From a virus: a DNA stretch of 64,000 nucleotides. The stretch lies in IMG/VR virus record IMGVR_UViG_3300029210_000253; one strand, 5' to 3'. Positions 6,026 through 31,042 of the stretch are shown here, in pieces. The stretch's first letter is position 1. Each line of letters opens with the position of its first letter. The position numbers and the translations under genes were made by a program. The notes below the pieces were generated by a model. That model searched no databases. It saw only the letters and a list, made by a program, of their open reading frames with translations, and was not told the DNA's origin.

Positions 6026-7123
6026 ATGAAAGACATTAAGATTGTGATAGGTGCTAATTTTGGAGATTGTGGAAAAGGATTAATGACAGATTATTTCTCA
6101 CAGAAACCTAATAGTATTGTTGTTTGTTCAAATGGTGGTGCTCAGAGAGGACATACCGTAACAACGCCTGGTGGAATCAGACATGTCTTTCATCATTTTG
6201 GATCTGGAACATTCACTCATGCAAGTACATATTTATCTGAGGATTTTATTGTTAATCCAATTATTTTTAAGCAGGAATATGATGAGTTGATGAAATTAGG
6301 ATATATTCCAAATGTTTATATCAATCAAGATTGTATGTTGACTACACCTTTTGATATGATGGCAAATCAGATTATAGAGGAAAATCGTGGGAAAAATAAA
6401 CATGGTAGTTGTGGCTTGGGAATTTTTGAAACTATCAAAAGATATAAAGCTGGTATAACTGATGTAGATGATCATATCAGGGAATATTACTTAGAACAAT
6501 TTGAAAGAGAGAATATTATATTAACAGATGAATGGTCAAGAATATTCCTTGATAATGGTATATTTGAACACTTTTTAGATGATTGGGATTTTATGAATAA
6601 TCACTCATTGGCTATATCAGATAATTATTTTTTAAATCAGTTTGATAATATTGTATTTGAAGCTGCACAAGGTTTATTGCTTGATCAGAATAACACAGAA
6701 TATTTTCCACATCTAACACCATCTAATACAGGTATTAAAAATCCCAAGAGAATAATTGAAAATGTTGAATGGAATGAAGAGATAAACATTGAAACTTGTT
6801 ATGTGTCTCGTGCATATCTTACACGGCATGGTACAGGAAAATTTCCATCAGAGTGTGATAAAAATCAGATCAACAAATATATTTTTGATAAAACTAATAT
6901 ACCAAATCCATTCCAGGATACATTGAGATATGGAACATTAGATTTAAAAGAATTGTATAACAGATGCAGTAAGGATGTAGGAGATTTTGGAAATAAGAAA
7001 TCATTAGCGCTTATGCACTGCAATGAATGTGACTGGGATGACGAAGAGTTGATTAGCCTATTTAAAGGTTGGAATATATATTATTCTGATGGAGAGACAA
7101 GAGAAGATATTAGATTGAGGTAA
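6026..7123 (+). CDS. adenylosuccinate synthetase homolog, short PurA/PurZ type (365 aa)
   Basis: GANFGDCGKG matches PurA GDEGKGK, NGGAQRGHT matches GG(H)NAGHT, HGSCGLGI matches TTGRGIGP. AGGAGA RBS. Confidence 0.75.
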   Translation: MKDIKIVIGANFGDCGKGLMTDYFSQKPNSIVVCSNGGAQRGHTVTTPGGIRHVFHHFGSGTFTHASTYLSEDFIVNPIIFKQEYDELMKLGYIPNVYINQDCMLTTPFDMMANQIIEENRGKNKHGSCGLGIFETIKRYKAGITDVDDHIREYYLEQFERENIILTDEWSRIFLDNGIFEHFLDDWDFMNNHSLAISDNYFLNQFDNIVFEAAQGLLLDQNNTEYFPHLTPSNTGIKNPKRIIENVEWNEEINIETCYVSRAYLTRHGTGKFPSECDKNQINKYIFDKTNIPNPFQDTLRYGTLDLKELYNRCSKDVGDFGNKKSLALMHCNECDWDDEELISLFKGWNIYYSDGETREDIRLR

Positions 7124-11966: not shown

Positions 11967-12998
11967 ATGATTGATGAGATTAAGAAAAAAGTCAGTAGTG
12001 GAGAATATGATTTTCTAAGAACCAATGAGCATCTTGGAAAGAATATTATTCTTCTTGGTTTGGGTGGTAGTTATGCCTATAGCACTAATGTAGAGAATTC
12101 GGACTTGGATTGCCGCGGCTGTGCCTTAAATAGCAAGATGGATATTTTGACTAATCAGAATTTTGAACAGTTCGTAAATGAACAGACTGATACAACAATA
12201 TATTCGTTCAATAAGTTAGTTTCGTTATTACTGAATGTAAATCCTAATACTATTGAGTTGTTAGGATTAAAGCCTGAGCATTATTTATACGTAACATCGA
12301 TTGGTCAGGAATTATTAGATAATGCCCATTTATTTTTATCCAGGAAAGCTGTGTATTCTTTTGGTGGTTATGCGAACCAGCAGCTTCGGCGTTTAAGTAA
12401 TAAGGCGGCAAGAGTAGTAGGGCAAGAAGAAAGAGAACAACATATTCTCAATAGTATTATGAATGCCGTATATACATTTCCTAGCAAATATGCTTATTAT
12501 CCAGAAGATTCACTTAAGCTCTATATTGATAAGTCAGATAAAGAAGATTATAATACAGAAATTTTCATGGATATGAATTTTAAACATTATCCACTGAGAG
12601 ATTATAAAGCAATGTGGTCTGAAATGAACTGTGTAGTAAAAGATTATGCGAAGATTGGGAAGCGTAATCAGAATGCTATCGAACATGGAAAACTAGGAAA
12701 ACACATGATGCATTTAGTTCGTCTTTATTATATGTGTTTTGACATTTTAGAGAATGAAAAAATTGTTACATACAGAGGAAAAGAACATGACTTATTGATG
12801 GATATTCGCAATGGTAAATATCTGGACGGTAACGATCAGCCGATTCCTGAATTTTATGAGTTGGTGGATGAGTTGGATAAAAGATTAGCTTATGATAAGA
12901 AAAATACTTCTTTACCAGAGAATCCTGATTATAATGCAGTAAATGAATTTATGGCAAGTGTTAATGAGAGAGTTGTAAAAGGAGAAATTAAATGTTAG
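11967..12998 (+). CDS. Pol-beta-superfamily nucleotidyltransferase
   Basis: GS-x9-SDLD motif in LGLGGSYAYSTNVENSDLDCRG, typical of minimal nucleotidyltransferases. Confidence 0.5.
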   Translation: MIDEIKKKVSSGEYDFLRTNEHLGKNIILLGLGGSYAYSTNVENSDLDCRGCALNSKMDILTNQNFEQFVNEQTDTTIYSFNKLVSLLLNVNPNTIELLGLKPEHYLYVTSIGQELLDNAHLFLSRKAVYSFGGYANQQLRRLSNKAARVVGQEEREQHILNSIMNAVYTFPSKYAYYPEDSLKLYIDKSDKEDYNTEIFMDMNFKHYPLRDYKAMWSEMNCVVKDYAKIGKRNQNAIEHGKLGKHMMHLVRLYYMCFDILENEKIVTYRGKEHDLLMDIRNGKYLDGNDQPIPEFYELVDELDKRLAYDKKNTSLPENPDYNAVNEFMASVNERVVKGEIKC

Positions 12999-17532: not shown

Positions 17533-17758
17533 ATGATGGAAGATATTTGCTTTTTTTAAATCATGGTTATCTGTAGGTTTTGTATCAATGTTGTTGATGC
17601 AAGCTTATATGTATAGAAAAGTAGATTTTTCTATAAAATACATAACTAAAGACTTTTTAGTAGATTCAATTGTTATGACATGTTTGGGTTATATTATGGC
17701 ATTAATCTTGTTTATAAGAACATTTAGTGATTTTCTTGATTGGTTATTTTATTTTTAA
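17533..17758 (+). CDS. small membrane protein, continuous only if one T is removed from a T7 tract (MMEDICFF | KSWLSVGFVSMLLMQ...); otherwise a 56-aa ORF from ATG 17588
   Basis: GGTGAGGA RBS before ATGATG at 17533. Frame stops at TAA immediately after a T7 run; the +1 frame continues as a hydrophobic ORF to 17758. Confidence 0.3.
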
Positions 17759-17783
17759 TATATAAAAAGAAAGGATAAAACAA

Positions 17784-20396
17784 ATGATGGAAGGTTTAAG
17801 TAGCAAGGAAGTTCTACAGAATAGAGAGCTTCACGGTAGTAACAAACTCCCAGAGCCAAAATTGAATAAGTGGTATGATTTCGCAAAAGAAGCATTAAGT
17901 GAAAAAATTACAATGATTCTTATTGCAATTGCAGTATTACAGTTGGTTCTTGGTATCATGGGAGTTATGGATTTGGCAGATCCCATTATGATTTTAGTTG
18001 TCTTAGGTATTGTAACCTGTATTGCAGTAAAAACTGGATTAGGTGTTCAGAAATCAGCAGCAGAACTAAGAGCTAAAACATCTGTCAGGTATTGTGACGT
18101 AATTCGTGATGGAAAAGTACAGATAATTAATAAAAATGATTTGGTAGTGGGCGATTTAGTATGTGTTGGAATGGGACAGGAAATTTTTGCAGATGGTTAT
18201 TTAGTAGAAGGGAAAATCTCTGTAAATAATGCAGCTATTAATGGAGAAACAAAAGAGTGTGTTAAAACACCAATTCCTGAGTACGTACATACTAAAACAA
18301 CTTCTACATCAGCTTATACAAATCAGAATTGTTTATTTGCTGGTACTACCGTTATGAGTGGTGAAGGCAAGATGATTGTAACGGATGTTGGTATCAACAC
18401 TGTCAACGGTGATACATTAGTAAAGATGCAGACATTGGAGGCACCAAAGACTGCATTAGATATTGCATTAGATAACTTATGTGATTTTATTTCTAAATGG
18501 GGAACTATTGCAGCAGTTATTACTTTTGCAGTATTAACTATTTCGGGTATCTTAAATGTAGGGTTTGGAAAATATTTTAGTGGTGGAGTGTTAAACATCA
18601 TTCAGAAGTTTGCTCAGAATTTTTCAGTAGCTTTAACCATTATTGTAGCAGCTGTTCCTGAAGGACTTCCGTTAATTGTAAAGCTTGTCACTAAACAAAA
18701 TGTCAAAATAATGGAAGGATTTAACATCCTTGCAAAGAATCCTGGGAAAATTCCAGAATTAGCTTATGTCGATCTAATTTGTACTGATAAGACAGGAACT
18801 TTAACAACCGGTATTATGACGCCAAAAGTAATTATCGATGGAGCTGGTAATGAAGTAGATAAGAATTCTGATTTATGGAAGGTTATTAAAGCAAATATTA
18901 GTTTAAATAACAGTGCCACATTTGACTCAGAGAATAATATTACAGGTGGTAATTCAATTGATAGAGCAGTTTTAAGCCTGATTAAACCTGACGACTATAC
19001 TGATATTTGCAAAAGAAATCCTTTAATTCAGAAACAGGTATTTAATAGTCAGAATAAGTATTCTGCTTTTGAGAGTAAATATAATTGGGGTGACTCATTT
19101 ACATATTATAAAGGCGCTCCTGAGAAATTGCTTGAGCATTGTACACATTGGATGGATTTAGAAGCTATTCCATTTCATGAAAATGAAAAAGAGGAATTGT
19201 GTGAAAAGATTAAGTCTATGACAGAAAGATCTATTAGGTGTATTGCACTTGCATATTCTAATAGCCCTCTTGTAGAGAATGTATTACCAGATGATATGAT
19301 CTTCTTAGGAGTGATTGGTGTAGTTGATCCTGTTAGAGCAGAGGTTCCAGCAGCTGTAGAAACAGCTCATAAAGCCGGTATTCAAGTAATCGAGATTACA
19401 GGTGACTGTATCGAAACTGCAAGAGCTGTTGCTGCCGAGTGTGGTATTTATAAAGATGGAGATGTAGCCTTAACAAATGATGAATTCGAAGCTATGACAG
19501 ATGATGAAGTAAAACAGATCATCCCGTCACTGAGAGTCATTTCCAGATGTTCTCCAAATACCAAATTAAGACTTGTTACATTAGCTCAGGAAATTGGAAG
19601 GTCTGTGGCTATGACAGGTGATGGCGTAAATGATAGTCCAGCATTAAAGAGAGCAGACGTTGGATTTGGAATGCAGAGTGGATCTGATGTAGCAAAAGAG
19701 GCCTCAGATATTATTCTTACAGATGACAACTTTGCAAGTGTTGTAAAAGCGGTAGAACTGGGAAGAACATTTATGCATAACATTATGATGTTCTTGGAAT
19801 TCCAGTTACCGATTAACATTTCTTTACTTATTCTAAGTGTTATCTATCCTATGATTACAGCAAGTGCATTACTTGCATCTGTACAAATTCTTATCGTAAA
19901 TATCATTATGGATTCCCTTAATTCGTTATCATTTGGCGGAGAGCCACCAAAAGAAGAATATATGACAGAAAATCCTATTAAGAAGGGTTCTGGATTATTT
20001 ATTCGAGGAGCAAAAAAGAGAATTGCTTTAAGCACAATTACATTTATTGCACTATATGGAGTTATTACATTTGGTTCTATTTCAAAAATGTTCCCAACAG
20101 AGACAGCTACAATGACAGCAAGATTTGCTCTGTTATGCTTTATGGCGGTATTTAATGGTTTTAATATCCGTACTGAACATATTAATTTATTTAATGGTAT
20201 TGGCAAGAATAAAATGTTTTCTGCTATTGCAGTAGGAATTTTTGCTATGACATTTGCAATTTGTAATTTTGCTGGAAATCTCGTAAAGGTCACAGCATTA
20301 GATTTACAGCATTGGATGGTAATTCTGATTCTATCATTTATGGTTATTCCTGTTGACTTAATCAGAAAGATTGTCGAGAGAAAAAAGAATAATTAA
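17784..20396 (+). CDS. P-type (E1-E2) cation-transporting ATPase, Ca2+/Mg2+-type
   Basis: Phosphorylation motif ICTDKTGTLT, hinge TGDGVNDSPAL, N-terminal cation-ATPase segment, about 10 TM helices, 870 aa. Confidence 0.95.
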   Translation: MMEGLSSKEVLQNRELHGSNKLPEPKLNKWYDFAKEALSEKITMILIAIAVLQLVLGIMGVMDLADPIMILVVLGIVTCIAVKTGLGVQKSAAELRAKTSVRYCDVIRDGKVQIINKNDLVVGDLVCVGMGQEIFADGYLVEGKISVNNAAINGETKECVKTPIPEYVHTKTTSTSAYTNQNCLFAGTTVMSGEGKMIVTDVGINTVNGDTLVKMQTLEAPKTALDIALDNLCDFISKWGTIAAVITFAVLTISGILNVGFGKYFSGGVLNIIQKFAQNFSVALTIIVAAVPEGLPLIVKLVTKQNVKIMEGFNILAKNPGKIPELAYVDLICTDKTGTLTTGIMTPKVIIDGAGNEVDKNSDLWKVIKANISLNNSATFDSENNITGGNSIDRAVLSLIKPDDYTDICKRNPLIQKQVFNSQNKYSAFESKYNWGDSFTYYKGAPEKLLEHCTHWMDLEAIPFHENEKEELCEKIKSMTERSIRCIALAYSNSPLVENVLPDDMIFLGVIGVVDPVRAEVPAAVETAHKAGIQVIEITGDCIETARAVAAECGIYKDGDVALTNDEFEAMTDDEVKQIIPSLRVISRCSPNTKLRLVTLAQEIGRSVAMTGDGVNDSPALKRADVGFGMQSGSDVAKEASDIILTDDNFASVVKAVELGRTFMHNIMMFLEFQLPINISLLILSVIYPMITASALLASVQILIVNIIMDSLNSLSFGGEPPKEEYMTENPIKKGSGLFIRGAKKRIALSTITFIALYGVITFGSISKMFPTETATMTARFALLCFMAVFNGFNIRTEHINLFNGIGKNKMFSAIAVGIFAMTFAICNFAGNLVKVTALDLQHWMVILILSFMVIPVDLIRKIVERKKNN

Positions 20397-20415
20397 ATAG
20401 GAAGGAGAAATACAC

Positions 20416-21165
20416 ATGGGATTATTTAGTAAGTTATTTGGAGGAAACAAAACAGAGGTAGAAGAGAAAGTGCAGTCTACACCTGTTAATACGACAGCAT
20501 CAGTAATTGATATGTCTAAGTCAGCTGAAAATCTAAACAAGGTCCTTATTGATATGTCAAAAGGATCTAAAATCGACATGACTAAACATGTTGCAAGAGT
20601 AGCATTGGCAATGGATTATTCAGGCAGTATGGATAGGTTATATTATAACGGGGCTGTACAGAATGTTATTACTAGACTACTTCCAATTGCTTTAAAGTTT
20701 GACGATAATGGAGAATTAGAATCATGGCTATTTTCCAATCAGGAAGAAAGACTTCCAGCAGTAAATGTAAATAATTATGAAAATTATGTACAGAAAGTAA
20801 TGATGAAAGCTTGTATGAGTATGGGCGGAACAAATTACGCACCTGTTTTAAAAGATATGGTCAAGTATTATAAGGATATAGAACCAAGTAGTGTGCCTGC
20901 GTTTATTATCTTCATCACTGATGGTGAAAACTTTGATAAAGCAGAAACAAATAAGATCATCAAGGAGTTATCTAACTACAATATTTTCGTGCAGTTTATT
21001 GGAATTGGAAATGAGAGTTTTACATATCTTAAATCATTAGACAACATGGAAGGTCGTGTACATGACAATACTGGTTTTACAGCTGTAAAAGATATGAATA
21101 AGATGACAGACGGAGAATTATATACTGAGCTTCTTAGACAGTATAAAGATTGGCTGAACAAATAA
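20416..21165 (+). CDS. vWA-domain protein (TerY-like)
   Basis: MIDAS motif in ALAMDYSGSMDR; AGGAAGGAGAAA RBS. Confidence 0.75.
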   Translation: MGLFSKLFGGNKTEVEEKVQSTPVNTTASVIDMSKSAENLNKVLIDMSKGSKIDMTKHVARVALAMDYSGSMDRLYYNGAVQNVITRLLPIALKFDDNGELESWLFSNQEERLPAVNVNNYENYVQKVMMKACMSMGGTNYAPVLKDMVKYYKDIEPSSVPAFIIFITDGENFDKAETNKIIKELSNYNIFVQFIGIGNESFTYLKSLDNMEGRVHDNTGFTAVKDMNKMTDGELYTELLRQYKDWLNK

Positions 21166-21198
21166 TAAAAATATAAATAAAAGAAAGAGGTAGATATT

Positions 21199-21840
21199 AT
21201 GGCAAACGTAATCAATATGAGTAAGAATCAGAAAATCAATATGACCAAGGATGATGGAACTGCAATCAAAAACTTTTTCATTGGTGTAAATTGGGATCAG
21301 AATCGGTACGCAGGTGAAGCAGATATTGACTTTGACATTAATGGTTTTTTAACTAATAGTGACCGAAAGGTAACTTATCCAAAAGATATTGTTAATTACA
21401 ATACATATGGCGATGGCAGCGCATATCCATGGGTAGAGTATTCCGGTGATAACCTTACAGGTGATGATTCTCAGGGAATTACTTTCGATGGAAAACATTA
21501 TGATGAGTATTTTATTGTACATGCGGATACATTTCCAAAGGACAGAACAGATTTTACTATCTGCCTGACTATCTTTAGAGCAGTGCAGCGCCTTCAGAAC
21601 TTTGGAATGGTCAATAATGCAATAATGACTATTTGTGATTATGATAATCCAAATGGTACTAAGTGGGAATACGATCTTTCCGAAAATGAAAAGTTCGAAA
21701 GCCTTAATGCAGTAGAAATGGGTAGACTTTATCGATATGGTGATGGGTTTAAATTCCAGGCCCTTGGTTCAGGCTATGTCGGTGGTATGACTGAACTGTT
21801 CAAAAATTTTGGACTTGATATTGATGAAGGGAGAGATTAA
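21199..21840 (+). CDS. terD: TerD-domain protein (tellurite-resistance / Ca-binding stress protein family)
   Basis: INMSKNQKINMTK...GVNWD, SGDNLTGDD, QNFGMVNNA, ALGSGYVGGMTELFKNFGLD match TerD signatures. Confidence 0.9.
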   Translation: MANVINMSKNQKINMTKDDGTAIKNFFIGVNWDQNRYAGEADIDFDINGFLTNSDRKVTYPKDIVNYNTYGDGSAYPWVEYSGDNLTGDDSQGITFDGKHYDEYFIVHADTFPKDRTDFTICLTIFRAVQRLQNFGMVNNAIMTICDYDNPNGTKWEYDLSENEKFESLNAVEMGRLYRYGDGFKFQALGSGYVGGMTELFKNFGLDIDEGRD

Positions 21841-21843
21841 TCA

Positions 21844-22578
21844 ATGAATGGATTAATTTGGTTAATTTTCATTGCGATTATTGTTATTTTATTGTTTTTT
21901 ACAAAGACAGGCAAGAGGATTAGAATGAGGGCTTCTGGTACTGCTGATGAGATTATTACCAAGGACGCATCTACACCAGAAGGTGCCAAAGCATATTACA
22001 ATAAAGCAATTGAAGCTAAAGAACAGGATTACCAGAAAGCAAGTGCAATTCATGCTCAGATGCTTGGAAAGATTGAAAATTACGAGGATCAGCTACGCTC
22101 TTTAAAAAAGGAGAATATGCAGTTGGATTTAAATATCAATTCTTGTGTAGATAAGAATGATGATGAAGGTGCGAAAGTATATTTAAAGCGTCAGCAGGAA
22201 GTAACTGATAAAATTGAAATTATCAAAGATGCTTTAAAGGAATTAAAAGAAAATGCTGCCTTACAGGGAGAAACTGTAAAAGATATTTTTGAAAAGCTTG
22301 GTGAGTTAAAAGCAGAAAAAGAAACTGCTGTACTTACTCTTGAAACAGCTCAAGTGGCAAAGTCATTACAGGCTACTCCTGGTATCAATTCTAGTGAAGA
22401 AGATAAGATGCTGGAAAAGGTTCGTGATGGAATTAAGAAAACCAAAGAAGAATCTGATGGTAACAGGGTAGTGTATGAGAATTCCATCGCTGTTCAGATG
22501 AAGCGTCTTGACAAGAAAATGAAGGATGAAGAAATCCAGAAAAAATTAGATCAGCTAAAGGGGGCGAAGAATAAATGA
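21844..22578 (+). CDS. PspA/IM30 (phage-shock protein A / LiaH)-like coiled-coil protein with an N-terminal TM anchor
   Basis: Long heptad-like coiled coil paralleling PspA (KAIEAKEQDYQKASAIHAQM...LKRQQEVTDKIE...AALQGETV); N-terminal hydrophobic helix. Confidence 0.55.
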   Translation: MNGLIWLIFIAIIVILLFFTKTGKRIRMRASGTADEIITKDASTPEGAKAYYNKAIEAKEQDYQKASAIHAQMLGKIENYEDQLRSLKKENMQLDLNINSCVDKNDDEGAKVYLKRQQEVTDKIEIIKDALKELKENAALQGETVKDIFEKLGELKAEKETAVLTLETAQVAKSLQATPGINSSEEDKMLEKVRDGIKKTKEESDGNRVVYENSIAVQMKRLDKKMKDEEIQKKLDQLKGAKNK

Positions 22579-22707
22579 TTGTACTAAATATCGGTGTTTT
22601 TGTAATCTGTCTTGGTGTATGCTTTGGAGCAGGTTTTATCGTAGGAAAACGTAGGAAGAATAAATAATTCAAGAGTTGGTAGGTGTCATAGCCTACTAAC
22701 CCTATCA

Positions 22708-24435: not shown

Positions 24436-25137
24436 ATGAGCAAAAAGAATTTTTTTAAAGGTCTTAAATTTCATTATCGTTTTAACGATAAGGAGTTATT
24501 AGACAAATATGAAACTATTGAAGATTTCTTAAATACAAGTTTTCCCAAGAATAATAATCCATTATCGCCAAATTTGGATACAGAAATTTTTAAGATTGTT
24601 TGGAATAGACATTTACTTTCTGATTATATTCCTAACCAGATTAAAACAGTAAAAGATTTGTTAATTATTTTGAGTAATGAAGATATTTGTAATGCTTTAT
24701 TAACTAAGCAATTTTGCAAATCAAAACTAAAGCAAAAACAAAAACACGAGGACTTGATTCGCAAAGAAGTATATTCCATTGATGAAGTTAGAGAAAAAGT
24801 AAAAGACATTCTATTTGAAAAAGATAAGAGAAATGCAAAGATTGATTTCGATGGAGATTTGATTAAGGGTAACAGTCAAAGATATCAGACTTTTTTCACA
24901 AAAGGTTGTAAATGCGCAATTTGTGGAATTGAAGGAAAATATTTTGCAAAAGAAAGACATTTACAAGATAAAGCATATCATCTGAATTTATATGCAGTTG
25001 ATGATAATGATACAGAAATTTTAATGACAAAAGATCATATTTTACCACGCTCAAAAGGTGGTATTGATGATATTAGTAACTATCAAACAATGTGTAAGCC
25101 TTGTAATGAAGCTAAAGGTAACAAATTAGAAAATTAA
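24436..25137 (+). CDS. HNH endonuclease (homing-endonuclease-like)
   Basis: C-terminal CKCAICG...H...NYQTMCKPCN HNH/zinc motif. Confidence 0.85.
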   Translation: MSKKNFFKGLKFHYRFNDKELLDKYETIEDFLNTSFPKNNNPLSPNLDTEIFKIVWNRHLLSDYIPNQIKTVKDLLIILSNEDICNALLTKQFCKSKLKQKQKHEDLIRKEVYSIDEVREKVKDILFEKDKRNAKIDFDGDLIKGNSQRYQTFFTKGCKCAICGIEGKYFAKERHLQDKAYHLNLYAVDDNDTEILMTKDHILPRSKGGIDDISNYQTMCKPCNEAKGNKLEN

Positions 25138-25206: not shown

Positions 25207-26373
25207 TTGGAAAACAAAGAAAGAGCATTAGCACATATTGAAAAAATTGAATGGGTAAGACCAATTGAAGGAGCAGATAACATCGAATTAATTGGAGTGT
25301 TAGGTTGGATTTGTATTGCAAAAAAGGGAGAATTTCAACCTGGCGATCTAGCCGTTTACATTGAAATTGACAGTAAATGTCCTGAGAATGATGAGAGATT
25401 CGCTTTCTTAGAGAGTAAGAAATACAAAGTCAAAACAATGAAACTCGGAAAATTCAATGTAATCAGCCAGGGACTTGCATTACCTGCAATTTTATTTCCC
25501 GAAGTAGCAAATGATTCAATTGGTACAGATATTACTGAAAAATTACATATTACATATTATTCAACAGATGATATCGCAAGAAAGTCTAATAAAATCGATC
25601 CAAATTCTAAATACAAATCTATGGCAGCTCGCCATAAAAATCTCGCAAAGAAAAAATGGTTCAGATGGTTAATGAAACACAGTTGGGGAAAGAAAATTCT
25701 CTTTCTATTCTTTGGAAAGAAAAAAGATAATCCAAAAGAATTTCCTAAGTGGATTGTTAAAACTGATGAAACGAGAATCGAAAATGCACCGTTTTATTTA
25801 CAAAGCACAGAAAAATGGGTAAAGACAGAAAAATTAGATGGTACAAGTTGCACTTTTGCTGTGGATCACAAGAAAAAAGGCAAGGATAAATTTGAATTTA
25901 TTGTTTGTAGCCGTAATGTAAGACAGGCAGACCGAGATCAGGCATGTTACCACGATAACAATATTTATTGGGAACTCGCTGATAAATATGACATTGAGAA
26001 GAAACTTACAGAATTAGCAATTACTGGTGGTTATGATCGCGTAGTTTTACAAGGTGAAGGCATAGGTTCGGTTCAGGGTAATCCGTATAAATTAAAAGAG
26101 AATGATTTATATATATTTAACCTAATTATTAATGGTATAAGAACAGGAACGGTGGTAATGGCTGAATATTGCGACAATCATGGTTTTAAACATGTGCCGA
26201 TTATTGATACAGCCTACGAACTTCCACATACAATGGAAGAAATGAAACTTGAAGCTGATGGCTACAGTGAGATTAATCCGAAAGTAAAAAGAGAAGGTTT
26301 CGTATATCGATCTCAAGATGGGCAGCAGAGTTTTAAAAACGTTAGCCGTGAGTATTTACTGAAACATTCATAA
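25207..26373 (+). CDS. ATP-dependent RNA ligase (Rnl family)
   Basis: Nucleotidyltransferase motif I KTEKLDGTS (KxDG) and an N-terminal OB-like segment; TTG start. Confidence 0.7.
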   Translation: MENKERALAHIEKIEWVRPIEGADNIELIGVLGWICIAKKGEFQPGDLAVYIEIDSKCPENDERFAFLESKKYKVKTMKLGKFNVISQGLALPAILFPEVANDSIGTDITEKLHITYYSTDDIARKSNKIDPNSKYKSMAARHKNLAKKKWFRWLMKHSWGKKILFLFFGKKKDNPKEFPKWIVKTDETRIENAPFYLQSTEKWVKTEKLDGTSCTFAVDHKKKGKDKFEFIVCSRNVRQADRDQACYHDNNIYWELADKYDIEKKLTELAITGGYDRVVLQGEGIGSVQGNPYKLKENDLYIFNLIINGIRTGTVVMAEYCDNHGFKHVPIIDTAYELPHTMEEMKLEADGYSEINPKVKREGFVYRSQDGQQSFKNVSREYLLKHS

Positions 26374-26384
26374 GGAGATTTTAG

Positions 26385-26768
26385 ATGAATAAACCTAAGT
26401 TGTATATTATTACAGGTCTGAGTGGTAGTGGTAAATCCACTATCGCCCAGGAACTGGCAAAAGAAAATCCAAATACAGTAATTGTGTCATCGGATGCTAT
26501 TAGAGAAGAATTAACTGGCAAAGTAGAAGACCAGACTAAAAATGAAGAAGTATTCAATATTTTTCACAATAGGATTCGTAAAAATTTGGAAAATAAAAAG
26601 AATGTAATAGCAGATGCAACCAACATTACTATGAAGTCACGTAGAGCAATTATGATGAAAGTAAATGGATTAGATATTGAGAAAATCTGTTATTTGATTC
26701 CAAAACCATATGAACAGTGTAAGGTTGATAATAAGAATAGATTGCATCCTGTTCTGATGAAGTGTTAG
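26385..26768 (+). CDS. P-loop polynucleotide 5'-kinase-like protein
   Basis: Walker A GLSGSGKST; small kinase fold next to the ligase and the HD protein. Confidence 0.6.
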   Translation: MNKPKLYIITGLSGSGKSTIAQELAKENPNTVIVSSDAIREELTGKVEDQTKNEEVFNIFHNRIRKNLENKKNVIADATNITMKSRRAIMMKVNGLDIEKICYLIPKPYEQCKVDNKNRLHPVLMKC

Positions 26769-27316
26769 ATAAACAGATCATGCGGTTTCAAGTGCCGTTT
26801 TATGGAGAAAATTTCGATAAAATTATTATTCATAAAGATGATAGTTGGGATAAATATCAGATGGATAGTATTAAAATGTTTTTAGCAATGTTTGGATTTG
26901 ATCAGAAAAATCCACATCATAACATGACATTAGATGATCATTGTTTGAATACATACAACTTGTTCTGTGATAAAATCCCACATAAAACATTATTAAATCT
27001 CGAATATGTTAATGGGTATGCAATGGGAGCAAAACTACACGATTTTGGCAAAATCATGGTTCAGACATTTGATGAAAACGGTATTGCCCACTACTACGGA
27101 CATTCTAGTACAGGATCGTATTTTATTCTTTCTCAAATGGTAAAACCTCTTGTATGGACAGACGATATGTTATTAGATTGTTGTTTTCTTATCAATTATC
27201 ATATGATGCCGTTTAATTGGACAAGTGATGAAGCAAATAAACGTTGGAAGAAAAGATTTGGAGAATATAAATATCAGATGCTATTAGATTTCAATGAATG
27301 TGATCGAGCGAGGTAA
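26762..27316 (+). CDS. HD-domain metal-dependent phosphohydrolase (candidate 2',3'-cyclic phosphodiesterase/phosphatase)
   Basis: H...HD signature in NPHHNMTLDDH and LHDFGK; GTG start overlaps the kinase stop. Confidence 0.7.
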   Translation: MLDKQIMRFQVPFYGENFDKIIIHKDDSWDKYQMDSIKMFLAMFGFDQKNPHHNMTLDDHCLNTYNLFCDKIPHKTLLNLEYVNGYAMGAKLHDFGKIMVQTFDENGIAHYYGHSSTGSYFILSQMVKPLVWTDDMLLDCCFLINYHMMPFNWTSDEANKRWKKRFGEYKYQMLLDFNECDRAR

Positions 27317-29917: not shown

Positions 29918-29953
29918 AAGAATAAATAAGTGGCTGAGAAATCAGTCACATCT

Positions 29954-30026
29954 AGCGAATTAGTATAATCAGGTAGTACACTGAGGTTTGATCTCAGAAG
30001 TATCGGTTCAAATCCGGTATTCGCCG
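29954..30026 (+). tRNA. tRNA-Gln (anticodon UUG)
   Basis: Hand-folded cloverleaf: acceptor AGCGAAT/ATTCGCC, U8, D-stem GTAT/GTAC with GG in the loop, anticodon stem CTGAG/CTCAG with loop GTTTGAT (U33, UUG, A37), T-arm ATCGG-TTCAAAT-CCGGT. No encoded CCA. Confidence 0.75.
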
Positions 30027-30173
30027 TCGGCTCTGATTCATCTGTGATGTGGAAAGTCGCAGAACGGTGGCAAGAGGATGTAAAACTTTAAAAACAAATT
30101 TCCCATCGGATTGTTATTGCTTGGTTGATGCGCAGACTTAAGCAACAGAGCCACTTAATAAAACGTTTATGGT

Positions 30174-30242
30174 TTCTCATTGGTGTAATAGGAAGCACGG
30201 CAGCTCACTCTGTAAAACTTGGTTCGAGTCCAAGATGAGGAA
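30174..30242 (+). tRNA. tRNA-like element: canonical T-arm (CTTGG-TTCGAGT-CCAAG) plus a pairing acceptor stem, but no canonical anticodon arm; likely a degenerate tRNA or tRNA 3' fragment
   Basis: Perfect GGTTCGAGTCC T-arm and a 7-bp acceptor (one G-U); the internal 37 nt cannot be folded into standard D and anticodon arms. Confidence 0.3.
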
Positions 30243-30271
30243 GTAATAAAAATAAAAAGGAGTGATAAATA

Positions 30272-31042
30272 TTGAGTGTATTTGTAACAGGCGATTGCCA
30301 TGCGGATGTAAGCAGGTTCAGTAAAGATTGTTTCTATGAACAAAAAGATTTTAGCGGAAACAAGGATGAAAATTTTGTAATCATCTGTGGTGATTTTGGT
30401 CTTGTATGGCAGCGTGATTGTGAAAGAAAATCAGAGCATTATTGGTTAGACTGGTTAGAAGATAAACCATTTACAACCTTATTCGTAGATGGGAACCATG
30501 AGAATCATAAAAGAATGGCTACATATCCAGTAAAAGAATGGCATGGTGGTATGGTTCACGAAATTAGACCACATGTTCTACATATGATGCGTGGTGAGGT
30601 TTTCAATATTCAGGGTAAAAAATTCTTTACATTCGGTGGTGCAAGTTCGCACGATATTTCAGATGGTATTCTTAATTATAACGATGAGGATTGGCGAGAA
30701 CAAGCCAAGGAATTGGAAGCAAGTGGTAAATGGATGTACCGTGTAAAAGATCTGACTTGGTGGGAAGAAGAACTTCCAACTGGTCAGGAAATGCAATATG
30801 GATTGGACAAATTAAAAGAGAATAATAATGTAGTAGATTATATTATCACTCATAGTCCACCTGCGTCAGTTATCGCTTTATTAGGACAAGGCTTGTATGA
30901 ACAGGATATTCTTACGAAGTATCTGGAGAATATTAGAGCAGAAACCGAATATAAGTATTGGTTCATGGGACATATGCATGTTAATAGAGCAATCAATGAT
31001 AAAGATATGATTCTGTACGAGCAGATTGTACAGGTATTATAA
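30272..31042 (+). CDS. calcineurin-like metallophosphoesterase
   Basis: Motifs GDCHAD, CGDFG, GNHENH, GHMH; TTG start behind AAAGGAG. Confidence 0.7.
   Translation: MSVFVTGDCHADVSRFSKDCFYEQKDFSGNKDENFVIICGDFGLVWQRDCERKSEHYWLDWLEDKPFTTLFVDGNHENHKRMATYPVKEWHGGMVHEIRPHVLHMMRGEVFNIQGKKFFTFGGASSHDISDGILNYNDEDWREQAKELEASGKWMYRVKDLTWWEEELPTGQEMQYGLDKLKENNNVVDYIITHSPPASVIALLGQGLYEQDILTKYLENIRAETEYKYWFMGHMHVNRAINDKDMILYEQIVQVL

Follow-up and report, generated by a model that had tools for sequence, protein, structure and literature searches.

A four-gene cassette of human-gut phages that joins a predicted Ca2+ pump to Ter-type proteins and a membrane-anchored PspA-like protein

Why should a phage of the human gut carry, in one short row of genes, an ion pump, two proteins of the Ter type and a relative of PspA? 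The question is raised by IMG/VR virus record IMGVR_UViG_3300029210_000253, of which a stretch of 64,000 nucleotides (here called the window) was analysed. In it, four genes on the + strand fill positions 17784–22578 with intergenic gaps of 19, 33 and 3 nt. All four open reading frames (ORFs) had been called in an earlier reading of the bare sequence (the original prediction), and each was found in its place and on the + strand:

17784..20396, + strand: predicted P2-type (PMCA/LMCA1-like) Ca2+ P-type ATPase, 870 amino acids (aa), from Pfam, NCBIfam and PDB relatives
20416..21165, + strand: TerF-type copine-like vWA protein with complete metal ion-dependent adhesion site (MIDAS), 249 aa, from PF10138
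21199..21840, + strand: TerD-domain protein of the Ca2+-binding beta-sandwich family, 213 aa, from PF02342
21844..22578, + strand: protein of the PspA/Vipp1/ESCRT-III superfamily with a predicted transmembrane (TM) anchor, 244 aa, from fold, relatives and family profile

These four genes are one conserved, selected unit that travels together, and the unit is best read, by homology, as a variant of the phage Ter operon in which the pump stands in for TerC and the PspA-like protein for TelA. As to its function, we give about even chances to a coupling of Ca2+ export with Ca2+-sensed membrane stabilisation, which would keep the membrane of the infected cell sealed and energised.

The unity of the cassette is seen in its distribution. 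Searching IMG/VR with the PspA-like and vWA proteins yielded 70 loci (numbered below with the prefix L) on contigs of mostly 100–250 kb, and in every locus of sufficient length the order ATPase, vWA, TerD, PspA-like is kept (about 60 contigs, human gut). Identities within the cassette fall to 48% (ATPase), 56% (TerD) and 55% (PspA-like) while the flanking genes differ. In relatives anchored on the RNA ligase gene the four genes are either all present or all absent within 10 kb of the ligase, and the side of the ligase on which the cassette is placed, upstream or downstream, varies between genomes. Residue conservation was judged over 29–49 distinct variants per gene; the median ratios of non-synonymous to synonymous substitution rates (dN/dS) are 0.16 for the ATPase, 0.12 for the vWA gene, 0.10 for the PspA-like gene and 0.03 for TerD, which is by far the most constrained of the four. 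In one decayed cassette (L030, 7057–8720) a 305-aa N-terminal fragment of the ATPase is followed by an intact PspA-like gene, the vWA and TerD genes being deleted. The cassette contigs derive from samples of the human digestive system and include some of ~212 kb with a rating of complete, and each of the PspA-like clusters is present on dozens to more than 100 metagenome contigs. A nucleotide search of GenBank phages gave no match, and the clade is uncultured. The four protein types had been described as rarely seen together in phages; this is correct for isolated phages and incorrect for this uncultured gut clade, in which the combination is common.

Abbreviated Ter operons of TerD, TerC, TerF-vWA and TelA have been described in Caulobacter jumbo phages, for which superinfection exclusion was proposed (Iyer et al., 2021; PMC7824862). 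In CcrColossus (gp219–222) and in Brevundimonas phages the order is TelA – vWA – TerC/DUF475 – TerD, followed by RtcB, a phosphoesterase and an HD protein. The vWA protein of the window is homologous to gp221 (32% identity, E = 1e-28) and its TerD to gp219 (26–31% identical), and RNA-repair genes lie next to both operons. However, where CcrColossus has TerC/DUF475 the window has an unrelated P-type pump, where CcrColossus has TelA the window has the unrelated TM-anchored PspA-like protein, and the gene order and the host phylum differ as well. The possibility that the PspA-like protein is itself a TelA was considered and rejected (hhalign probability 0.06% with CcrColossus TelA; no PF05816 match). 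Since vWA and TerD are homologous in the two operons and TelA and TerC have no homologous counterparts, the operons share one design of four parts, namely a cation exporter in the membrane, a helical (coiled-coil) protein beneath the membrane, a vWA protein and a TerD, and in two of these parts the replacement is non-homologous. The exchange of TerC for a pump is, by analogy, biochemically sensible: TerC proteins export Mn2+ and metalate exoenzymes (PMC10550928), and the riboswitch class of TerC genes, which responds to Ca2+, also controls a pneumococcal Mn2+/Ca2+ P-type ATPase (PMC11672702).

Other combinations of such genes exist. Herelleviridae phages have a TerD-TerD-TerC version; two of them (YungSlug, LysYB1) were examined as carriers of the same cassette and discarded, since the gene of ~245 aa that follows TerD encodes TerC; an "ATPase domain protein" of 856 aa in these phages was discarded as a pump since it has no P-type domains. 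A GC-rich faecal contig, probably bacterial, links a Ca2+-type ATPase to two TerD genes. The bacterial ter clusters (terZABCDEF of IncHI2 R478 and E. coli O157; yceC-H of B. subtilis) share with the cassette TerD, a TerF-type vWA and the link to a membrane cation exporter, and they protect against pore-forming colicins and phages according to Whelan et al. (1997), as cited in PMC8123226. They differ, however, in their TerB, TerC, TerZ, TelA and nucleotide/metabolite genes and in that the vWA is unfused in the cassette; indeed, no gene for TerC, TerB, TerZ, TelA or PRTase/HAD metabolite proteins was found near the cassette in the window or in ~60 related loci. Tellurite resistance is unlikely to be the selected function of the cassette.

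The TerD protein is bona fide, as the original prediction had it. In profile hidden Markov model (HMM) searches it matches PF02342 with E = 5e-35 and 121 bits (cutoff 25.3), positions 3–187 of the 187 of the model being covered, and it aligns with Klebsiella TerD (2KXT) end to end (2e-22) and with 3IBZ (1e-21). The motifs DIDFDI and SGDNxTGdD (e.g., SGDNLTGDD) are conserved, and of the two acidic Ca2+-binding motifs of the family, DxDxD and GDN(R/L)TGEGDGDDE, the second is split by an insertion of 8–9 residues. Among relatives TerD is 82–93% identical where its neighbours are 60–75% identical. Klebsiella TerD binds Ca2+ (Pan et al., 2011, as cited in PMC8123226).

The protein preceding TerD had been called TerY-like, with a vWA domain and a MIDAS motif. 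Domain and motif were borne out, the TerY affiliation was not: the best model is PF10138 (vWA-TerF-like, E = 6e-62). The VWA model is also above its cutoff, and the Copine model is passed with 38.9 bits (cutoff 27). The MIDAS (D67-x-S69-x-S71, T139, D169) is kept in 42 variants. Neither a Ser/Thr kinase nor a PP2C phosphatase of the TerY-P triad is a neighbour of the vWA gene. Against PADLOC the cassette genes gave no defence-system match, the sole match (PDC-M08B, E = 0.007) being sub-significant; the cassette is therefore neither TerY-P nor another catalogued system. Unlike TerF, the vWA protein is not fused to a TerD domain, TerD having its own gene. As a separate observation, the TerD N-terminus, VINMSKNQKINMTK, is mimicked in the vWA protein by a repeat at residues 30–58 (20503–20589), VIDMSK...LIDMSKGSKIDMTKH. 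This repeat may be what is left of the TerD domain found in TerF, or it may serve as a strand for docking onto TerD.

Four independent routes assign the product of 21844–22578 to the PspA superfamily. The first is the predicted fold. An AlphaFold (AF2) model built from 18 homologs has helices at residues 45–103, 107–176, 184–203 and 228–243, with a predicted local distance difference test (pLDDT) score above 90 in the alpha1/alpha2-3 hairpin (45–176). When the model was compared with the PDB by Foldseek, 16 of the top 17 matches were Vipp1, PspA or archaeal CdvB, and E. coli PspA(1–144) (4WHE) superposes on it with 1.8 Å over 116 columns; the structural comparison with Vipp1/PspA that had been proposed as a check of the PspA call thus came out in its favour. 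The second route is a homolog from the faecal contig MT835556 (L075), which is related to the window protein at 2e-13 in tblastn and at 98.4% (E = 4e-15) in hhalign and which passes PF04012 with 42.4 bits (cutoff 33.9). The third is an exhaustive profile search of 1.84 billion representatives, which gave 209 matches at E ≤ 1e-3, nearly all of 240–260 aa, and reached canonical TM-less PspA-type proteins at E of about 1e-10 to 1e-7. The fourth is the family as a whole: PF04012 is matched by 39 of 74 members at E < 1e-3 (best E = 7e-13), and the profile of the 74 members finds Vipp1/PspA on top in the PDB (4e-6), before generic coiled coils. A shallow profile of 18 sequences gave only chance coiled-coil and WH2 matches in the PDB. 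The PspA/IM30 call is thus upheld by homolog, family profile and predicted fold, with the window protein itself under the PF04012 cutoff, so that the HMM check named in the original prediction nominally goes against the call. Apart from this, residues 183–200 (22390–22443; conserved EEDKMLEKVRDGIKKTK) show a weak likeness to the WH2 motif of N-WASP (profile E = 0.0011), probably by chance.

The TM anchor claimed for this protein was confirmed as a predicted N-terminal TM helix (residues 2–19), and such an anchor is present in 81 of 95 full-length representatives of the family. The canonical PspA-type matches of the profile search start with the amphipathic helix alpha0 (MGFFDRI..., MGIFDRI...) and read "NPEAVYE.AI" where the phage family has "TPEGAKAYYN.AI"; in the PspA-like protein alpha0 is missing and the TM helix is in its place. 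It resembles canonical PspA/LiaH/Vipp1 (IM30) in hairpin fold, in overall helix layout and in being reached by the profile, and differs from them in the TM helix, in the lack of PspB/C/F or LiaI/G partners and in being phage-encoded. Partners of the PspBCF, LiaIG or PspM/N type do not adjoin the gene in the window or in related loci. The subfamily is near-absent from 185,579 species-representative genomes, the one match being on a 49.6 kb contig of an Oscillospiraceae metagenome-assembled genome (MAG), and this contig is a probable phage. PspA proteins repair proton leakage (literature cited in PMC11237479). In a survey of the partners of the phage shock protein (PSP) system, TerD, vWA, calcium and P-type ATPases all go unmentioned (Ravi et al., 2024; PMC11237479), and our literature search yielded no paper on phage-encoded PspA/ESCRT-III homologs as such. 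As judged from these searches, this is a new TM-anchored PspA family, restricted to phages, whose transporter partners are interchangeable.

The interchange is seen in sister phages without the cassette. In L103 (11269–15619) and L104 another module stands at the same locus, just after the RNA ligase gene, in the order ABC permease, ABC ATPase, unknown 186-aa protein, TM-PspA-like protein and NMT1-type binding protein fused to OmpA/MotB, and the TM-PspA-like protein is 29% identical to that of the cassette. The module is also present in Bacillus jumbo phage G (L074, gp243–gp250) and in MT835556 (L075:1469–5528). Both modules have a homologous TM-PspA-like protein with a (S/K)TP(E/D)GA motif, an upstream partner with an alpha0-like start and an ATP-driven transporter; in the second module, however, the transporter is an ABC permease/ATPase, there is neither TerD nor vWA, and the partner is an unknown protein of 186–204 aa. 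The occurrence of the TM-PspA-like protein in both makes it the constant partner of alternative ATP-driven transporters.

The upstream partners have one more thing in common. The vWA protein begins with MGLFSKLFGG (residues 1–10; 20416–20445), a start conserved as MG.F.KLFG, which resembles helix alpha0 of Vipp1 (MGLFDRLGRVV, sequence verified). Alpha0-like starts are also found in the other partners encoded 5' of a TM-PspA-like gene, namely MGLFEKLGLVEK in L103 (12659–12694) and ...KKSFFE(K/R)(L/I)G in phage G (L074, 6332–6373) and MT835556 (L075, 2468–2509). Among the 3,883 distinct ORFs of the fetched loci, nine begin in this way, i.e., with a motif of the MGLF(S/E)K(L) type, and all nine are partners of a PspA-like gene. 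This suggests that the membrane-binding role of alpha0 was shifted from the PspA-like protein to its partner; the motif is short and is therefore a lead, no proof.

The pump has the signatures of an active P-type ATPase, CTDKTGTLT (with D335) and MTGDGVNDSPALK, and all five Pfam domains of the cation-transporting family. D335 (DKTGT), E293 (PEGL), N706/D710 (M6), TGD, GDGxND and KGAPE are kept in 49 variants, down to 48% identity. A predicted Ca2+ site II, made up of E293 (PEGL of M4), N706 and D710 (both M6), aligns with that of ACA8 and is found clade-wide. The closest relatives in the PDB are ACA8 from Arabidopsis (1.8e-102) and LMCA1 from Listeria (2e-90), followed by SPCA1 and PMCA. TIGR01517, the NCBIfam equivalog for PMCA-type Ca2+-ATPases, is passed marginally (509.4 bits, cutoff 507.05); the Mg2+-ATPase model gives 215 bits (cutoff 611), and none of the SERCA, PMR1, Mg2+, H+, Na/K and heavy-metal models comes near to being passed. 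Of the "Ca2+/Mg2+ type" in the original prediction, the P-type and Ca2+ parts therefore survive and the Mg2+ part falls. By homology, the pump is most likely a PMCA/LMCA1-like Ca2+ exporter. With LMCA1, ACA8 and PMCA it shares the P2-type architecture and a single predicted Ca2+ site, and its size is near that of LMCA1; it differs in having ~30% identity to them, no calmodulin-binding or autoinhibitory tails, NGET for TGES, and a gene that lies within a Ter/PspA operon.

Virus-encoded Ca2+ ATPases have a precedent in chlorella viruses (cited in PMC12880540). Closer to the window are the Jug phages of the human gut, which have a Ca2+ P-type ATPase and three terD genes, one of them beside a gene labelled "pspA-like" in that paper (Sci Adv, February 2026, PMC12880540; bioRxiv preprint, August 2025, PMC12363816). 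The Jug ATPase and the terD/pspA-like genes are highly transcribed in the human gut, and a Jug-type ATPase was reported in 81 other huge gut phages, some of them Bacillota-like (PMC12880540). These 81 phages probably include members of the clade studied here, members of which figure in the huge-phage table of the Jug work (preprint tables, without neighbourhood information). The Jug phages differ in genome size and host (360–402 kb, Bacteroides/Phocaeicola, versus ~200 kb phages here) and in gene arrangement: the ATPase region is one operon, the terD region is another and a vWA protein is not mentioned, whereas here all is one operon. Thus phage Ca2+ ATPases, the terD/pspA-like pair (Jug, 2025–26) and phage Ter operons were already known; what is new is that the four genes are linked, that there is a TM-anchored PspA family, and that it has alternative transporter modules. 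As to whether the set is a common, already described phage cassette of known function, which had been named as grounds for giving up the original prediction, its parts are published but neither the four-gene set nor a function for it is, and these grounds do not apply. Missing from that prediction were the kinship with phage Ter operons, the Jug precedents and the PspA-like gene as the constant partner of alternative transporters in sister phages.

How could the four proteins work together? The operon would be expressed in the infected cell from an early/accessory gene region, and the pump would enter the cytoplasmic membrane of the host and export Ca2+, possibly also Mn2+. TerD and the vWA protein would act as Ca2+/divalent-metal-dependent adaptors on the inner face of the membrane, to which the vWA protein would be brought by its alpha0-like amphipathic N-terminus. 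Both would engage a polymer of the membrane-anchored PspA-like protein, and this polymer would stabilise or seal the stressed membrane. The net effect would be that ion gradients and membrane integrity are kept for as long as a phage of ~200 kb needs to complete its lengthy cycle in the cell. The damage to be countered could come from genome injection, from superinfection, from membrane-attacking abortive-infection effectors or from membrane proteins of the phage itself. The manipulation of cation flux or envelope stress that was originally suggested fits the intact pump sites, TerD, the vWA protein with its MIDAS, the PspA-like protein, the all-or-none linkage and the purifying selection; as a biological role it stays conjectural. 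Support from context comes from the protection that bacterial ter clusters give against pore-forming colicins and phages, from the repair of proton leakage by PspA proteins and from the conflict-type genes, such as those for RNA repair and NAMPT/NAD synthase, amid which the cassette lies.

In a more far-reaching and rather improbable version the cassette would be a virus-encoded, Ca2+-triggered membrane-repair machine. In eukaryotes the influx of Ca2+ through a membrane wound recruits sensors of the C2, copine or ALG-2 type and ESCRT-III, and the cassette would be the prokaryotic counterpart of this wound repair. By analogy, TerD and the copine-like MIDAS vWA protein would sense Ca2+ leaking inward; the vWA protein would supply the alpha0-type helix that the PspA-like protein has lost, and the two together would nucleate the TM-anchored polymer at the lesion; the pump would then clear the Ca2+ and reset the system. 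If this were true, the phage would survive membrane-targeting abortive infection or superinfection, and Ter proteins would gain a biochemical role.

Such a role is wanted, since for decades it has been unclear what the Ter proteins (TerD, TerF-vWA, TelA, TerC) do, widely distributed though they are and linked to resistance against phages, colicins and tellurite. The operon is a natural swap experiment, in which TerC has been exchanged for a pump of inferable substrate and TelA for a protein of a known mechanism class. The swap would suggest that Ter systems serve at their core to export divalent cations and to protect the membrane, an idea that is testable with four genes. Three threads that used to be separate meet in the operon, those of the Ter proteins, of a Ca2+ pump and of a PspA that is ESCRT-III-like, and the context of PspA seen here (Ca2+ pump, TerD, vWA) adds to the published catalogue of its partners. 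It also offers an explanation for the Ca2+ pumps of abundant human-gut phages, and phage counter-defence would gain a new class should the module prove to act against bacterial defences that attack the membrane.

Several points weigh against the coupling of Ca2+ export to membrane stabilisation. Physical interaction among the four proteins is a proposal. The ion specificity of the pump was assigned from homology, the PMCA model being passed by 2 bits only, and SPCA-like Ca2+/Mn2+ pumps score similarly; moreover, the TGES loop of the A-domain is NGET in the whole clade (residues 153–156; 18240–18251), Glu being kept and Thr exchanged for Asn. In TerD the insertion in the acidic Ca2+ loop leaves Ca2+ binding a prediction. 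The PspA-like protein of the window reaches 21.3 bits with PF04012 and is thus below the cutoff, and the Foldseek E-values of its model are modest. In a promoter/terminator scan sigma70-like sites were not in excess and canonical terminators were absent, and no timing signal was established for the cassette. Many relatives have no cassette near the RNA-ligase locus, which makes the cassette dispensable. Finally, the host is indicated by hints only, i.e., a DnaE similar to those of Clostridioides and Bacillus phages and the one Oscillospiraceae MAG contig; the clade, with its ~200 kb phages, probably infects Bacillota.

These points leave room for other explanations. Superinfection exclusion, though on the whole unlikely, is the one that deserves most attention. 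The sub-membrane layer and the ion conditions would be remodelled such that the DNA of later phages is kept out, which is the role that Iyer et al. (2021; PMC7824862) gave to the TerD/TerC/TerF/TelA operons of jumbo phages, and homologous vWA and TerD proteins are common to those operons and the cassette. Bacterial ter clusters inhibit phages (as cited in PMC8123226), and the cassette sits amid conflict-type accessory genes (RNA repair, NAMPT/NAD synthase, methyltransferases). The role was, however, derived purely from bacterial phenotypes; it leaves unexplained why the PspA-like protein has a variable partner, either a Ca2+ exporter or an ABC importer-like module; and it overlaps with Ca2+-coupled membrane stabilisation, being perhaps one outcome of the same mechanism.

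The pump could also act on its own by lowering cytosolic Ca2+ and thereby reprogramming the metabolism or the signalling of the host to the advantage of the phage, TerD, vWA and PspA-like proteins being general stress helpers with no direct link to it. Such manipulation of host physiology, an auxiliary-metabolic role, was proposed for the Jug phages, whose ATPase operon is distinct from that of the terD/pspA-like genes, both being highly transcribed (PMC12880540), and the pump of the window has every motif of an active exporter. We consider it improbable here: the four genes are strictly linked, all-or-none, and travel as a unit, which argues for one mechanism; TerD and not the pump is the most constrained; and it is the PspA-like gene that the decayed L030 keeps, its pump being truncated.

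An SPCA/MgtA-like exporter of Mn2+ (or Mn2+ and Ca2+) would do the job of TerC by providing Mn2+ at the membrane or relieving its toxicity, e.g., for the metalation of secreted or membrane enzymes that the phage needs. The pump does hold the position of TerC/DUF475 in the Caulobacter-phage operon, the export of Mn2+ by TerC metalates exoenzymes (PMC10550928), the score of SPCA1 nearly equals that of LMCA1, and the pneumococcal Mn2+/Ca2+ P-type ATPase is under the same riboswitch class as TerC genes (PMC11672702). Yet the best matches and the sole equivalog passed are Ca2+ pumps, TerD is a documented binder of Ca2+ (as cited in PMC8123226), and the search for RNA elements near the cassette found no metal riboswitch, Mn-responsive or other, and no other RNA element, so that Mn2+ export is very unlikely to be what the cassette is for. 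That it is a moron, i.e., a bacterial stress operon carried passively without a role in the phage life cycle, is hardly credible: the four domains are typically bacterial, the probably bacterial faecal contig joins an ATPase to TerD genes and relatives without the cassette exist, but the PspA-like subfamily is near-absent from species genomes (its sole match being the probable phage contig in a MAG), the cassette has been kept over deep divergence under strong purifying selection, and its composition and orientation are phage-like.

Two small membrane ORFs flank the cassette in the window and are outside its core:

17533..17758, + strand: small membrane ORF with two TM helices, its frame broken by an extra T; accessory
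22575..22667, + strand: single-pass membrane peptide of 30 aa, MIVLNIGVFVICLGVCFGAGFIVGKRRKNK, overlapping the PspA-like gene by ATGA; frequent accessory

The frameshift noted in the upstream ORF is real. A strong ribosome-binding site, GGTGGTGAGGA, precedes the ATG at 17533; the frame from this ATG ends after 8 codons, and the hydrophobic ORF goes on in the +1 frame to 17758. At 17551–17557 the window has a run of seven T, whereas the nearest relative (L004) has six and an intact 74-aa ORF with two TM helices. The ORF is present in this nearest relative only, and its candidacy as a core regulator of the pump was rejected for that reason. Non-homologous small TM ORFs adjoin the ATPase start in L005 and L058–L072, and in Jug phages a gene of 77–91 aa upstream of the ATPase is co-transcribed with it (PMC12880540). 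The gene for the 30-aa single-TM peptide, absent from the original prediction, is translationally coupled to the PspA-like gene by the ATGA overlap; of 47 distinct loci, 20 have it directly 3' of that gene's stop codon. Its product has the conserved start M-I/V-V-L-N-x-G-x-F, its dN/dS is 0.43, and one further copy (L062) holds a stop codon. In loci without the peptide a hairpin follows directly after the PspA-like stop.

In one subclade (L006, L014, L016, L021, L033, L055) a terminator-like hairpin and then a conserved TTTGTTATAGAT box are found ~35–90 nt upstream of the ATPase start. The box is not in the window and not enriched elsewhere, and may serve the cassette as a local promoter. A TTGTTATAGAT box 5' of the ATPase in one subclade was considered as a general phage promoter and discarded, since it is not enriched in the window or in L014.

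The window as a whole is phage DNA, with long ORFs all on the + strand, a GC content of ~32% and a strongly positive GC skew. It carries a replication module of DnaE-type polymerase, DnaB-like helicase, primase, exonucleases, NAD ligase and RNA ligase. Two contigs with the cassette, L124 and L127 (394,739 and 404,970 bp), are about twice the usual ~200 kb genome and may be concatemer assemblies or a larger lineage. On them no host chromosome was found next to the cassette, the flanks being phage accessory genes (NAMPT plus NAD synthase, an nSTAND3 ATPase, a radical-SAM enzyme and methyltransferases). Around the cassette of the window the RNA-repair set is as follows:

11967–12998: RlaP-like nucleotidyltransferase
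25207–26373: RNA ligase
26385–26768: Pnkp-like kinase
26762–27316: HD-like protein
30272–31042: metallophosphoesterase

Three further observations concern the rest of the window. A gene at 6026–7123 encodes a divergent 365-aa homolog of adenylosuccinate synthetase, which reaches 99 bits with PurA models and 39.7 bits with PurZ, all far under the cutoffs; a PurZ reading, i.e., a genome with 2-aminoadenine (Z-genome), is unsupported by that score. ARAGORN called two tRNA-like genes, at 29953–30028 and 30173–30243: a tRNA-Gln(TTG) gene that was confirmed by Rfam, and a second call that reads an abnormal 2-nt anticodon loop and has no Rfam confirmation. Between the cassette and the RNA ligase lies a gene for an HNH endonuclease (24436–25137), which is present in some syntenic relatives and absent from others, as for a mobile element of the homing type.

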